DNA of 64,000 nucleotides from Escherichia phage phAPEC8: sequence record NC_020079.1; one strand, written 5' to 3'. This document shows positions 27,143 to 29,148 of the stretch, in pieces. The notes below the pieces were generated by a model. The model made no database searches. It was not told the DNA's origin and saw only the letters and a list, made by a program, of their open reading frames with translations. The position numbers and the translations under genes were made by a program. Within the stretch, counting starts at the first letter, position 1; each line of letters begins with the position of its first letter.

Positions 27143-27217
27143 GGCCCTGTAGCTCAATGGGAGAGCTGTCGGCTCATAACCGATAGGTAGCTGGATCGAA
27201 ACCAGCCAGGGCCACCA
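27143..27217 (+). tRNA. tRNA-Met (anticodon CAT)
   Basis: Hand-folded cloverleaf: acceptor GGCCCTG/CAGGGCC, anticodon loop CTCATAA, encoded CCA; T-loop ATCGAAA. Confidence 0.7.
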
Positions 27218-27219
27218 AC

Positions 27220-27294
27220 GTCTTTATGGTGTAATGGATAGCACAGGAGTCTTCTAAACTCTTAGTCAAGGTTCGATTCCTTGTAAAGACACCA
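27220..27294 (+). tRNA. tRNA-Arg (anticodon TCT)
   Basis: Acceptor GTCTTTA/TAAAGAC, anticodon loop CTTCTAA, T-arm CAAGG-TTCGATT-CCTTG, CCA. Confidence 0.7.
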
Positions 27295-27490
27295 GAACAT
27301 TTTAACATGAATTAGCTCAAGTGATTTGAACCCACTACTGATCATGGTGGCAGAGAATGAGGCAAGTATGTCAGACATTATAAACAAAGGCCACGGTTAC
27401 ATTAGAAGACATAAATGCTCGAAGAGCACCGTTCGTGGAGAACGGGGGTTGGTGGAGTCACCATTCATGGTAAAATGTTTTAAAAAACTA

Positions 27491-27520
27491 TTGACAACTA
27501 ACATTATTTTATGTTAGATT
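27491..27520 (+). promoter_or_regulatory. sigma70-like promoter inside the tRNA operon
   Basis: CTATTGACA, 17-nt spacer, TTAGAT/TAGATT -10; a few nt upstream of tRNA-Ser. Confidence 0.45.
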
Positions 27521-27528
27521 ATAAGTAT

Positions 27529-27619
27529 GGAAGGGCAAATCGACGTGGCGACGAAAACGGTCTTGAAAACCGCCGAGCTTGAAAGAGCCTTGGGAGTTCG
27601 ACTCTCCCTCCTTCCGCCA
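27529..27619 (+). tRNA. tRNA-Ser (anticodon TGA), class II
   Basis: Acceptor GGAAGGG/TCCTTCC, anticodon loop CTTGAAA, long variable arm, T-arm GGGAG-TTCGACT-CTCCC, CCA. Confidence 0.6.
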
Positions 27620-27623
27620 GATT

Positions 27624-27709
27624 GGTAGATTGGTGAAATGGTAGCCACGACAGTTTGCTAAACTGTAGTCGGAAACGGCGTGTAGGTTCGAGTCCTACAT
27701 CTACCGCCA
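27624..27709 (+). tRNA. tRNA-Ser (anticodon GCT), class II
   Basis: Acceptor GGTAGAT/ATCTACC, anticodon stem-loop ACAGT-TTGCTAA-ACTGT, long variable arm, CCA. Confidence 0.65.
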
Positions 27710-27836
27710 AGTTGTTTTTAATGTAGCGTTGCGGCTACTTACTTTAGCAGAGTAAATCTTCGGCAAGTGGCGGTAACCACTTTACCGATACCGCATAGTC
27801 AGTAAGGCGAATACTGGCTACTTTAAAAACAATTTT

Positions 27837-27920
27837 GTGAGATTGGCAGAGTGGTCGATTGCGGGGGACTGTAAATCCCTTCTGAAAGGCGCGGTGGTTC
27901 GAATCCATCATCTCACACCA
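27837..27920 (+). tRNA. tRNA-Tyr (anticodon GTA), class II
   Basis: Acceptor GTGAGAT/ATCTCAC, anticodon loop CTGTAAA, long variable arm, T-arm GGTGG-TTCGAAT-CCATC, CCA. Confidence 0.7.
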
Positions 27921-27926
27921 AATTAA

Positions 27927-28012
27927 GATGAGTTGGCTGAATGGTTTAAGCGGCGGACTGTTAATCCGTGTTCGAAAGAACGATATAGGTTCAAATCCTA
28001 TACTCATCGCCA
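27927..28012 (+). tRNA. class II (long variable arm) tRNA whose anticodon loop reads CT-GTT-AA (Asn-like); identity uncertain
   Basis: Acceptor GATGAGT/ACTCATC, T-arm ATAGG-TTCAAAT-CCTAT, 13-nt variable hairpin, CCA; best-paired anticodon stem gives GTT. Confidence 0.5.
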
Positions 28013-28027
28013 GAATTATGGACTTGT

Positions 28028-28095
28028 AGAGTTAAGGTAAACCCCCAGTCGCCAAGAGGCTTCTGGAATTGCAGGTATCGAATCCTGCCGAGTCC
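28028..28095 (+). ncRNA. degenerate tRNA-like element
   Basis: Acceptor-like GGACTTG/CGAGTCC and T-stem GCAGG/CCTGC, but 8-nt T-loop, no CCA and no clean anticodon arm. Confidence 0.3.
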
Positions 28096-28102
28096 CAGCT
28101 TT

Positions 28103-28177
28103 GCTCCTATAGTATAATGGCTATTACAACGGTTTTGTAATCCGTGGATCTCTGTTCGATTCAGAGTGGGAGCACCA
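28103..28177 (+). tRNA. tRNA-Thr (anticodon TGT)
   Basis: Acceptor GCTCCTA/TGGGAGC, T-arm CTCTG-TTCGATT-CAGAG, anticodon loop TTTGTAA with one mismatch in the stem, CCA. Confidence 0.6.
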
Positions 28178-28453
28178 ACACAACATTAAGGGCACTGTGA
28201 TTGATCGTCGTATCCTGTGCACAAGGTCTGTTCGAAAGACAGTGTTCTTAGTATTGTGTTGATCACACAAAAAGAGTTACCTGAAACTTGACCGGAGTAG
28301 GGTTGGATGGGGCAAAAGAAGAAGCGGCTCTCCCATCGACAGCAACGAAGAATAATATTTGACTTTGGTTTTGTATTATTTTAAGTTAGCTTACCGAACG
28401 TAGGGCTAGTCACCCAACGGGATACTCGTCACTGTCCCACTCAATAAAACTAT

Positions 28454-28483
28454 TGACAACCAATAGTAAAATGTAGTATAGTA
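28454..28483 (+). promoter_or_regulatory. sigma70-like promoter inside the tRNA operon
   Basis: CTATTGACA, 18-nt spacer, TATAGT -10; 12 nt upstream of tRNA-Gly. Confidence 0.5.
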
Positions 28484-28494
28484 AAGATGTAGGG

Positions 28495-28568
28495 CGTTCT
28501 TGGTGTAGCGGTAGCATTCCGTCCTTCCAAGTCGGCGGCACGAGTTCGATCCTCGTAGAACGCTCCAA
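28495..28568 (+). tRNA. tRNA-Gly (anticodon TCC)
   Basis: Acceptor GCGTTCT/AGAACGC, anticodon loop CTTCCAA, T-arm ACGAG-TTCGATC-CTCGT, CCA. Confidence 0.65.
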
Positions 28569-28665
28569 ATTATTTAATAAAGGGTTGCCAGAAAACTTTC
28601 TCTTTTACTCATGGTTTTCTCCTTCTCTCACACCTCTTCTGGTTGCCCTTCATTAAATGATTTAT

Positions 28666-28741
28666 TGGTTTGTAGTGTAGTCCGGTAGCACACGACACTT
28701 TGACTGTCGTAGGTTTGGTTCAAATCCAGACAGACCAGCCA
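28666..28741 (+). tRNA. tRNA-Gln (anticodon TTG)
   Basis: Acceptor TGGTTTG/CAGACCA, anticodon stem-loop CGACA-CTTTGAC-TGTCG, T-loop TTCAAAT, CCA. Confidence 0.65.
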
Positions 28742-28834
28742 TATAACAAAGGTGAGTCACTACCTCAAGTGTGAAGTTAAAAACGAGGAGCCGCCGAACA
28801 CTTTCTTTTGCGGCGTACCTTTAGAATGTTATGA

Positions 28835-28911
28835 CGGAATTTAGCTCAGTTTGGTAGAGTGTACGCTTTGGGAGCGTATTGTCGCAGGTTCGAATCCTGC
28901 AATTCCGACCA
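28835..28911 (+). tRNA. tRNA-Pro (anticodon TGG)
   Basis: Acceptor CGGAATT/AATTCCG, anticodon stem-loop TACGC-TTTGGGA-GCGTA, T-arm GCAGG-TTCGAAT-CCTGC, CCA. Confidence 0.7.
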
Positions 28912-28917
28912 ATTAAA

Positions 28918-28991
28918 TGTTTCGTAGTTCAATGGTAGAACCCACGACTGATAATCGTGAGATACAAGTTCGATTCTTGTCGAAACAACCA
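28918..28991 (+). tRNA. tRNA-Ile (anticodon GAT)
   Basis: Acceptor TGTTTCG/CGAAACA, anticodon stem-loop CACGA-CTGATAA-TCGTG, T-arm ACAAG-TTCGATT-CTTGT, CCA. Confidence 0.7.
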
Positions 28992-28993
28992 GT

Positions 28994-29065
28994 TTCCCGT
29001 TAGACTTACAGGATAAGAGTTCCACAATTTATTGTGACGCTGGTTCGAATCCAGCACGGGATACA
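28994..29065 (+). ncRNA. degenerate tRNA-like element with aberrant anticodon arm
   Basis: Good T-arm GCTGG-TTCGAAT-CCAGC and 6-bp acceptor, but the anticodon arm is CACA-ATTTAT-TGTG (6-nt loop) and no CCA. Confidence 0.3.
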
Positions 29066-29069
29066 TAAT

Positions 29070-29148
29070 AGCGGGATAGAGGAGTCTGGTCGTCCTCGCC
29101 AGTTTCATATGCTGGAGATCATTGGTTCAAATCCAATTCCCGCCTCCA
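29070..29148 (+). tRNA. tRNA with anticodon CAT (Met or lysidine-Ile), second CAT tRNA
   Basis: Acceptor AGCGGGA/TCCCGCC with A1-C72 mismatch, anticodon stem-loop CCAGT-TTCATAT-GCTGG, T-arm ATTGG-TTCAAAT-CCAAT, CCA. Confidence 0.6.

Follow-up and report, generated by a model that had tools for sequence, protein, structure and literature searches.

The 64,000-nucleotide stretch of Escherichia phage phAPEC8 analysed here (NC_020079.1; hereafter the window, numbered from its first letter) carries, at positions 27143-29148, a run of transfer RNA (tRNA) genes that an earlier note on this DNA had described as an operon of at least 12 tRNAs with repeated internal promoters. Our analysis indicates that this is very probably a Phapecoctavirus tRNA cluster, transcribed and processed by the host, whose main role is to supply tRNAs for codons that are enriched in the phage. 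Phapecoctavirus comprises phAPEC8-like E. coli myophages of ~150 kb within the subfamily Stephanstirmvirinae, and the locus belongs to this genus by its identity and synteny with type members, including matching flanking genes. Along its whole length, the 3.3 kb around the array shares 96-98% nucleotide identity with more than 60 deposited Phapecoctavirus genomes (62 records with at least 80% query coverage in this comparison), and the records of relatives annotate the same tRNAs, order, terminator and flanking genes. The array is an already annotated locus of a well-known kind, present in GenBank many times.

ARAGORN at default settings and Rfam RF00005 at its gathering threshold each identify 11 tRNAs at 27143-29148, all on the plus strand, with RF00005 scores of 50.1-72.2 bits against a threshold of 29 (E values of 1e-7 to 8e-14), and neither finds a further tRNA in the rest of the 64-kb window. 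Together with a twelfth gene, tRNA-Ser(TGA), which is returned by relaxed ARAGORN (-ps90), this bears out the proposed array of at least 12 genes, as well as the claim that all lie on the plus strand and encode their CCA, which is found at the 3' end of 12 of 12. When the hand-folded cloverleaves of the earlier note were scored with a covariance model, 11 of the 12 passed, the opposite of a majority rejection. In the ARAGORN drawings each of the 12 has an acceptor stem of 7 bp, an anticodon loop of 7 nt that contains U33, a GTTC-type T-loop and CCA, the exceptions to a canonical cloverleaf being A1.C72 in the second CAT tRNA and an odd D-arm in Ser(TGA). Spacers between tRNAs are as short as 2-6 nt, and nothing beyond the 12 tRNAs was found in the gaps of the array by Rfam at E values up to 10 or by ARAGORN -ps90. 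The features of the array are as follows.

26904-26933, plus strand: promoter-like site P1 (TTGACA, 18 nt, TAGGAT; TG-extended -10; A/T-rich upstream; 10/12 matches)
26943-27141, plus strand: structured leader RNA of ~200 nt, multi-branched with a ~22-bp closing stem, between P1 and the first tRNA
27143-27217, plus strand: tRNA(CAT) of the tRNA-Ile2 type (Rfam 64.5 bits; CCA)
27220-27294, plus strand: tRNA-Arg(TCT), reading AGA (and AGG) (Rfam 66.3 bits; ARAGORN)
27491-27520, plus strand: promoter-like site P2 (TTGACA, 18 nt, TAGATT; TG present)
27529-27619, plus strand: tRNA-Ser(TGA), class II (ARAGORN -ps90 only; the lowest-confidence member)
27624-27709, plus strand: tRNA-Ser(GCT), class II (Rfam 56 bits; ARAGORN)
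27710-27836, plus strand: structured spacer RNA with a ~16-bp closing stem
27837-27920, plus strand: tRNA-Tyr(GTA), class II, A73 (Rfam 56.3 bits)
27927-28012, plus strand: tRNA-Asn(GTT) with class II architecture (Rfam 62 bits; ARAGORN)
28020-28095, plus strand: tRNA-like RNA, homologue of T5 rna3, with a cloverleaf-like fold
28103-28177, plus strand: tRNA-Thr(TGT), reading ACA (Rfam 59.5 bits)
28453-28482, plus strand: promoter-like site P3 (TTGACA, 18 nt, TATAGT; 11/12 matches, best of the scan)
28494-28567, plus strand: tRNA-Gly(TCC), reading GGA (Rfam 56.1 bits)
28568-28665, plus strand: structured spacer RNA with a long closing stem and a C/U-rich interior
28666-28741, plus strand: tRNA-Gln(TTG), reading CAA (Rfam 54.9 bits)
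28835-28911, plus strand: tRNA-Pro(TGG) (Rfam 67.9 bits)
28918-28991, plus strand: tRNA-Ile(GAT) (Rfam 72.2 bits)
28992-29063, plus strand: tRNA-like element, a cloverleaf with a canonical T-arm and a 4-nt 'anticodon' loop
29070-29148, plus strand: initiator-like tRNA(CAT) (Rfam 50.1 bits; A1.C72, A11:U24, U73, CCA)
29149-29263, plus strand: 3' trailer with a conserved core at ~29158-29232
29264-29287, plus strand: intrinsic terminator, a 7-bp stem (5 G-C pairs) followed by TTTTT

The evidence for codon supply comes from a comparison of codon frequencies, which we determined for the phage (G+C 38-39%) from 65 non-overlapping open reading frames (ORFs) covering 50 kb of the window. Relative to an approximate E. 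coli K-12 reference table, the eight most enriched codons are ACA (4.1-fold), AGA (3.9), TCT (2.9), CCT (2.8), ATA (2.8), ACT (2.8), AGG (2.4) and GGA (2.3), and tRNAs of the array can read all eight, although TCT, CCT and ACT only if wobble of the cmo5U34 type is assumed. Codons cognate to the U34 tRNAs and to the Ile2 tRNA, which is predicted to bear k2C, exceed the remaining codons in enrichment (Mann-Whitney p = 6e-4), and they do so too when compared with other A-ending codons (p = 0.015). The suggestion that several of the anticodons match codons common in this genome is therefore upheld, with ACA, AGA and GGA among those at 2.3-4.1 times and CAA and TCA at ~1.5-1.6 times the E. coli frequency. 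In the published work on rV5, tRNAs were rationalised by codon usage and extended -10 promoters were reported (PMC3606486).

In the mechanism that we propose, host RNA polymerase would generate three overlapping polycistronic precursors, starting from P1, P2 and P3 and sharing an end at 29264-29287, from which host enzymes (RNase P, RNase E or III, and 3' exonucleases) would cut out the tRNAs. In the leader and the spacers, the long stems that close the structures have the look of sites for double-strand processing, and the spacer RNAs may be freed as stable small RNAs, as in T4 and T5. The main effect would be to provide tRNAs for ACA, AGA, ATA and GGA, and, given the usual U34 modification, for UCU, CCU and ACU; a second likely effect would be that translation continues when defence nucleases cleave host tRNAs.

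Several observations, in addition to the approximate nature of the reference table, weigh against this explanation as a whole. The codons cognate to the G34 tRNAs are little or not enriched (AGC 0.43, ATC 0.66, TAC 1.13, AAC 1.22), and codon supply explains neither these tRNAs (Ser GCT, Tyr, Asn, Ile GAT) well nor the initiator-like tRNA. The promoters are consensus matches, and a generic sigma-70 scan returned 13 sites against 12.6 in shuffles, which is no excess. Ser(TGA) reaches none of the curated thresholds and may be weak or defective as a gene, and the covariation seen in the leader and spacers draws on 2-3 effectively independent alleles per element.

It is conceivable, if on balance the less probable view, that the array is mainly a counter-defence device, in other words a stock of nuclease-resistant tRNAs standing in for host tRNAs that anticodon-arm nucleases (PARIS AriB, PrrC-like enzymes, retron-linked PtuAB or colicin-type toxins) have cut, with codon matching secondary. 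T5 versions of tRNAs rescue infection in the PARIS work (PMC12409363), and tRNAs of the Thr(TGT) and Asn(GTT) types are both in the array. In the phage Thr tRNA, positions 36-41 are U36-A-A-U-C-C41, against A41 in the host target (PMC12409363), an A41-to-C type of difference, and the G34 and initiator-like tRNAs, which codon bias leaves unexplained, would find a place here. The Tyr gene is moreover a hot spot of allelic replacement, as an arms race predicts: across tRNA-Tyr and its upstream spacer (27710-27926) identity to relatives drops to 0.68-0.82, and to 0.68 in tRNA-Tyr itself, within a surrounding region at 0.99 or above. The Tyr allele found in most close relatives is another one, 88 nt long, and the Ser-Tyr spacer of the window contains an 11-nt insertion (~27727-27737). 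Against this, tRNA-Lys(UUU), the prime PARIS target, is absent from the array, the Asn anticodon arm equals that of host asnT over positions 25-43, AriB site included, and the codon-enrichment signal is strong. Since the T5 tRNA-Asn is a class I molecule of 78 nt, the PARIS rescue data are also not directly applicable to the class II form found here. We thus keep codon supply as the leading explanation, and regard it as possible, though short of an even chance, that counter-defence is a real explanation that is secondary to or co-equal with it.

Part of the set might instead consist of decaying pseudogenes comparable to the two tRNA-like remnants of the array, in which case the functional tRNAs would number fewer than 12; Ser(TGA) at 27529-27619 would be the chief case. 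This gene fails both RF00005, with no hit, and default ARAGORN; its best Rfam match is to the tRNA-Sec model at 37.4 bits, below the threshold of 47, and its D-arm is aberrant. Non-decoding tRNA-like elements are clearly present within the array, and tRNA gene content differs among close relatives. The acceptor stem of Ser(TGA) nevertheless pairs perfectly over 7 bp, its T-arm is normal, its 7-nt anticodon loop has U33, and a V-arm, G73 and CCA are all present; the gene is also conserved, being 99.8% identical to an orthologue in phage ASO2A that tRNAscan-SE calls tRNA-Ser-TGA. The T5 tRNA-Ser(UGA) has a similarly odd D-arm and, according to the T5 record, can be converted into an effective suppressor. 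An alignment with the T5 and Justusliebigvirus Ser(TGA) genes brings the acceptor, anticodon, V and T stems into register, with compensatory change in 13 of 20 pairs; it also contains two Ser(GCT) tRNAs. We consider it unlikely that the functional set is smaller than 12 and count Ser(TGA) as a member of the array. A selenocysteine tRNA was considered for the same position and rejected, as the anticodon is TGA (reading UCA) and not TCA, the acceptor stem has 7 bp, where an acceptor/T geometry of 8/5 or 9/4 would be expected, and 37.4 bits lies below 47.

The anticodons listed in the earlier note all stand, with one identity to be corrected and two to be added: the tRNA named Met(CAT) resembles the tRNA-Ile of T4, the second CAT tRNA is initiator-like, and the 'atypical class II' tRNA is Asn(GTT). 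In the first CAT tRNA (27143-27217) the GGCCCTG acceptor and the D-arm are those of the T4 gene annotated as tRNA-Ile; its orthologue in ASO2A is called tRNA-Ile-CAT by tRNAscan-SE, and it is 95% identical to a tRNA of a T4-like phage. It thus has a CAU anticodon in a tRNA-Ile body and not in a tRNA-Met body, as expected of tRNA-Ile2. Given the resemblance to T4 tRNA-Ile and the Ile-CAT label, it is most likely an AUA reader, predicted to act as such after modification of C34. The second (29070-29148) aligns with the annotated fMet tRNAs of Justusliebigvirus (C1.C72) and T5 (U1.U72), and position 1:72 varies between it and these relatives without ever being a Watson-Crick pair, as expected of an initiator. 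In bacterial initiator tRNAs the anticodon stem has a run of three G:C pairs at its base; here the stem reads C-G, C-G, A-U, G-C, U.G, and it is because the three G:C pairs of the E. coli initiator are missing that we call this tRNA initiator-like. The corrected set accordingly has an AUA-reading Ile tRNA and an initiator-like tRNA in place of two Met tRNAs.

Transcription of the array by the host is suggested by its promoter-like sites. The window contains six copies of the 9-mer CTATTGACA, where 0.69 would be expected, and six was reached in 0 of 100 shuffles; three of the copies lie within the array (26901, 27488 and 28450), each followed 18 nt downstream by a -10 element. All three sites have an A/T-rich tract upstream. 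Promoters of the sigma-70 extended -10 type combine a TTGACA-like -35, a spacing of 16-18 nt and TGn with a TAnnnT -10. As sequence matches, P1 and P2 agree with the sigma-70 extended -10 type through their TG, and P3, the best hexamer match at 11/12, through its hexamers. The -10 element of P2 ends 8 nt ahead of the mature 5' end of tRNA-Ser(TGA), and that of P3 ends 11 nt ahead of tRNA-Gly. P1 is unchanged in other Phapecoctavirus genomes. Justusliebigvirus, the sister genus, has sites before Ser(TGA) and before Gly that match P2 and P3 in position, in TTGACA and in TGTTAGAnT, while the spacer between the hexamers has diverged; the P2 counterpart, at 2291 of the compared stretch, keeps the -35 element and TGTTAGATT, and the P3 counterpart lies at 3599, ahead of tRNA-Gly. 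This conservation of P2 and P3 reads as a phylogenetic footprint that supports function, short of proof of activity.

The array is closed at its 3' end by a hairpin at 29264-29282 with a T-run, the top terminator-like site of our scan, which is annotated as a rho-independent terminator in ASO2A; no convincing terminator was found by the scan inside the array. Hence the closing terminator that had been placed at 29264 is confirmed by both scan and annotation, and the interspersed promoters are recovered as sequence sites, namely three extended -10 sigma-70-like sites of which two are conserved in position in the sister genus. From these sites we infer that 'operon with internal promoters' is a fair description. 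Two of the CTATTGACA copies (at 40618 and 52619) lie inside coding sequence, so that the 9-mer alone is not diagnostic. We nonetheless think it improbable that the array is a simple operon served by one real promoter or by upstream read-through, with the internal CTATTGACA sites as inactive repeats: the unenriched generic scan and the two coding-sequence copies would fit such an arrangement, but the three array sites are alike in their A/T-rich upstream tracts, 18-nt spacing and extended -10 elements (TG at P1 and P2), the -10 ends of P2 and P3 lie 8 and 11 nt from mature tRNA 5' ends, and both sites keep their position in Justusliebigvirus despite a changed spacer.

Between tRNA-Arg and P2, and overlapping P2, lies an ORF of 49 codons (27368-27517) with a GAGG ribosome-binding site, the first 14 codons of which include ATA and AGA-AGA, which are the codons of the pair of tRNAs that directly precede it. 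In the record of one relative a 41-codon coding sequence (835-960 of its stretch) is annotated in a place that, by position, is roughly equivalent.

The tRNA-Asn at 27927-28012 is the most unusual member of the array. Its 15-nt variable region, GTTC-GAAA-GAAC-GAT, exceeds the 10 nt above which an arm counts as long and forms a V-stem (GTTC/GAAC) closed by a GAAA loop, which gives it class II architecture, and it has G73 and CCA. The anticodon is GTT by ARAGORN and in every annotated relative inspected, which places it outside the bacterial class II isotypes (Leu, Ser, Tyr, Sec). Its acceptor/T geometry is the normal 7/5 and not 8/4 or 9/3; positions 25-43 are identical to E. coli asnT, and the D-arm is nearer to serU than to asnT. 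Class II tRNA-Asn genes are also present in Epseptimavirus (T5-like), Justusliebigvirus and Moonvirus (T4-like), which together with Phapecoctavirus makes at least four genera, and changes in the V-stem are compensatory; the tRNA-Asn of T5 itself and that of Kuttervirus are class I. In three compared phage stretches the gene lies at 2996-3081, 3001-3085 and 1997-2081.

A pattern that combined the Asn anticodon arm of the window with a long variable region matched 108 loci in viral contigs, 104 of which are tRNA-Asn(gtt) of 82-91 nt according to ARAGORN (81 unique). Their 75 distinct V regions have a mean minimum free energy (MFE) of -3.3 kcal/mol, compared with -0.49 +/- 0.10 kcal/mol in shuffles; 81% reach -2 kcal/mol or lower, as against 8% of shuffles, and 52 are capped by a GNRA loop. 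The V-stem is 3-4 bp long. Pattern loci for class I tRNA-Asn in viral contigs number at least 120, a lower bound from which a ratio of class II to class I is therefore not derivable. Among 100,044 cellular species genomes the pattern found 21 loci, ~11 of them class II Asn genes, which are thus rare there. Several of these lie within large tRNA arrays (29 tRNAs in Micromonospora, 22 in Methyloprofundus, 12 in Agromyces), and three have a class I Asn gene as a neighbour, within ~100 nt in Agromyces and Azoarcus and at ~530 nt in one array in Methyloprofundus. Such adjacency of class I and class II Asn genes argues against simple redundancy. The Agromyces array also has an 85-nt tRNA-Gln. Judged by these surveys, the long-variable-arm tRNA-Asn is a widespread class tied to phages and mobile tRNA arrays, and it is under-described; we found no description of a class II tRNA-Asn in the searchable literature, with subscription journals outside the scope of the search.

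How such a tRNA is charged can be considered in the light of known identity elements. For asparaginyl-tRNA synthetase (AsnRS) these are the anticodon G34 U35 U36 and G73, and for seryl-tRNA synthetase (SerRS) the long variable arm, G73, G1:C72 and G2:C71, of which mainly the variable arm matters and not the anticodon; G2:C71 is absolutely conserved in E. coli tRNA-Ser and is a conserved pair in tRNA-Ser of bacteria, and C2:G71 is listed as a SerRS antideterminant (PMC9976931). The gene at 27927-28012 has both GUU and G73. From the SerRS set it has the V-arm, G73 and G1:C72, with A:U at 2:71. Across the 77 parsable sequences of the class II Asn family, G73 is found in all 77, U1:A72 in 54 and C2:G71 in 34. 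Because the determinants are of the Asn type (GUU and G73 here, U1:A72 and C2:G71 across the family), ordinary Asn identity and decoding is the favoured prediction. A mis-annotated tRNA-Ser or tRNA-Tyr was rejected, given the asnT-identical anticodon arm, G73, which excludes Tyr and Leu, the un-Ser-like A2:U71 and the Asn-like acceptor stems of the family. There is only a slim chance that the molecule is a SerRS substrate, with a tRNA-Ser body and an Asn anticodon that puts Ser at AAC/AAU in deliberate mistranslation, for although the long variable arm, G73, G1:C72, C11:G24, the serU-like D-arm and the fact that serine identity is set mainly by the variable arm and not the anticodon (PMC9976931) would suit it, A2:U71 replaces the G2:C71 conserved in E. 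coli tRNA-Ser, both known AsnRS determinants are present, the family shows U1:A72 (54/77), the antideterminant C2:G71 (34/77) and G73 throughout (77/77), the V-stem is short at 3-4 bp, and replacement of Asn by Ser across the proteome would harm the phage too.

One tentative idea about the extra arm, which we rate as rather doubtful, is that the GNRA-capped V-arm is an adaptive add-on that leaves the host-identical anticodon arm and AsnRS identity in place and would let the tRNA evade nucleases acting at ~34-41 (PARIS AriB, colicin E5-type), or serve some other role distinct from class I. Were the arm to protect from tRNA-cleaving immunity or to alter identity, it would amount to a new structural route of phage escape and a new class of tRNA. 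Nematode nev-tRNAs and bacterial allo-tRNAs are reportedly charged according to their body (with Leu, or with Ser/Ala) and are hence said to be code-breaking. They resemble the Asn tRNA of the window in having a long variable arm with a non-class-II anticodon (PMC3333845, PMC5389517), but the latter differs from them in keeping the Asn determinants GUU and G73 and the 7/5 geometry.

Besides the tRNAs, ~40% of the 'operon' is conserved structured RNA of other kinds, un-annotated as RNA in the records inspected. The leader at 26943-27141 has an MFE of -76.8 kcal/mol (z -4.95), a stability that none of 200 shuffles matched; it has no annotation in most records and is entered as a hypothetical protein in a few, and none of those inspected annotates the leader or the spacers as RNA features. 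Conservation within the genus is uninformative, as spacers and tRNAs alike are at ~99%, so that covariation had to be drawn from Justusliebigvirus, T5 and one 80% allele. Compared with that allele, shared by phiWec179/PsgM04F, 8 of 66 leader pairs are maintained through double changes. The Ser-Tyr spacer (27710-27836) has z -3.82, with 0 of 200 shuffles as stable, shows compensatory change in 6 of 39 pairs and is 80% identical over 138 nt to the Justusliebigvirus spacer. For the Gly-Gln spacer (28568-28665) z is -5.68, again with 0 of 200 shuffles as stable, and a 37-nt core is 92% identical in Justusliebigvirus. The C/U-rich interior of this last spacer, UUUUCUCCUUCUCUCACACCUCUUC, resembles the anti-Shine-Dalgarno sequence, and on its minus strand the core carries a strong ribosome-binding site and an ATG that opens a 12-codon ORF (8 codons in Justusliebigvirus).

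Two further elements lack a 7-nt anticodon loop and are for that reason treated as tRNA-like RNAs or remnants. The first, at 28020-28095 (z -2.0), has acceptor-like and T-arm-like stems and gives no Rfam tRNA hit at E values up to 10. It is homologous to T5 rna3 (T5s07), which likewise follows tRNA-Asn and is annotated in the T5 record as a 'putative tRNA-like RNA', and across the window, Justusliebigvirus and T5 compensatory changes affect 10 of 19 pairs. Its counterparts lie at 5878-5950 (minus strand) of the T5 stretch and 3086-3164 of the Justusliebigvirus stretch, with a common block GTAGAGTTAAG(G)TAAACC. In Phapecoctavirus, Justusliebigvirus and T5, tRNA-Asn and the rna3-like RNA look like a conserved two-gene module. 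The second element, at 28992-29063, is more stable than all of 200 shuffles (z -3.85) and is called by neither Rfam (E up to 10) nor ARAGORN (-ps90); it is probably a decayed or non-decoding tRNA. The trailer (29149-29263) is 90% identical over 72 nt to that of the Justusliebigvirus array, and, by analogy with E. coli 3'ETS-leuZ, 29149-29290, which ends in the terminator hairpin and U-tail, could be released as a 3'-derived small RNA. Sub-threshold hits to RyhB (29.4 bits against 55) and MicA at 29219-29289 overlap the terminator hairpin and U-tail and were judged to be chance resemblance.

The closest known systems are the tRNA regions of T4 and T5, which the window resembles in having close same-strand tRNA genes with structured conserved spacers, from which we infer co-transcription of the spacer RNAs. 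The T4 cluster, like that of the window, is a same-strand array with non-tRNA RNAs (eight tRNAs with the species 1 and 2 RNAs, rnaC and rnaD); a single precursor of ~1.75 kb contains the eight tRNAs and the species I and II RNAs, and host enzymes process it (PMC2330249). Both clusters have the Arg, Ser, Thr, Gly, Gln and Pro isotypes and closely related CAU tRNA-Ile genes, and the window has Tyr, Asn, Ile(GAT) and initiator-like tRNAs beyond the T4 set. T4 uses a phage middle promoter and has a homing endonuclease gene in the cluster, whereas the window has three host-type promoter-like sites and no endonuclease gene. In the T5 region (~24 tRNAs; RNAs I, III, IV, 1, 2, 3 and X), many annotated host-type promoters and 'stable' or 'tRNA-like' RNAs are interspersed, as in the window, and an rna3-type element after tRNA-Asn and an initiator-like tRNA resembling the annotated fMet of T5 are common to the two. 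Unlike the array of the window, this region spans ~13 kb and includes numerous small ORFs as well as HNH endonuclease genes, and its tRNA-Asn is class I with an altered anticodon stem, compared with the class II form and host-identical anticodon arm described here. Phage tRNA arrays, their rationale in codon usage and a role in counter-defence are already established, and to these the cluster adds little; potentially notable are the corrected functional reading of the set, the class II tRNA-Asn, the rna3-like module in common with T5, and the structured leader and spacers.

Within Phapecoctavirus, the arrays of vB_EcoM_ASO2A (MZ726793), phAPEC8_ev052 (LR597654) and Schickermooser (MK373788) have the same 12 tRNAs, order, terminator and flanks at 96-98% identity, the window differing from its relatives by another tRNA-Tyr allele and the 11-nt Ser-Tyr insertion. 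Public records of the genus annotate 10-12 of the tRNAs. The Gln-Pro spacer (28742-28834) is variable, with a second copy of tRNA-Pro(TGG) in vB_EcoM_01 and a deletion in Schickermooser, and phAPEC8_ev052 has a divergent Pro allele. The sign of the GC skew switches near 26 kb of the window, which places the array where a block of genes on the minus strand gives way to the plus-strand block of packaging and structural genes, the latter starting with terminase genes (large subunit at 30651-32726). A further CTATTGACA promoter-like site, the fourth that is intergenic, lies outside the array at 34419-34450 and is preceded by a very A/T-rich tract. Records of Campylobacter phage B15, Pseudomonas phage PsgM04F and Acinetobacter phage vB_AbaM_ABPW7 hold the Phapecoctavirus locus at 80-99% identity, and host mislabelling or contaminated isolates are the likely cause.

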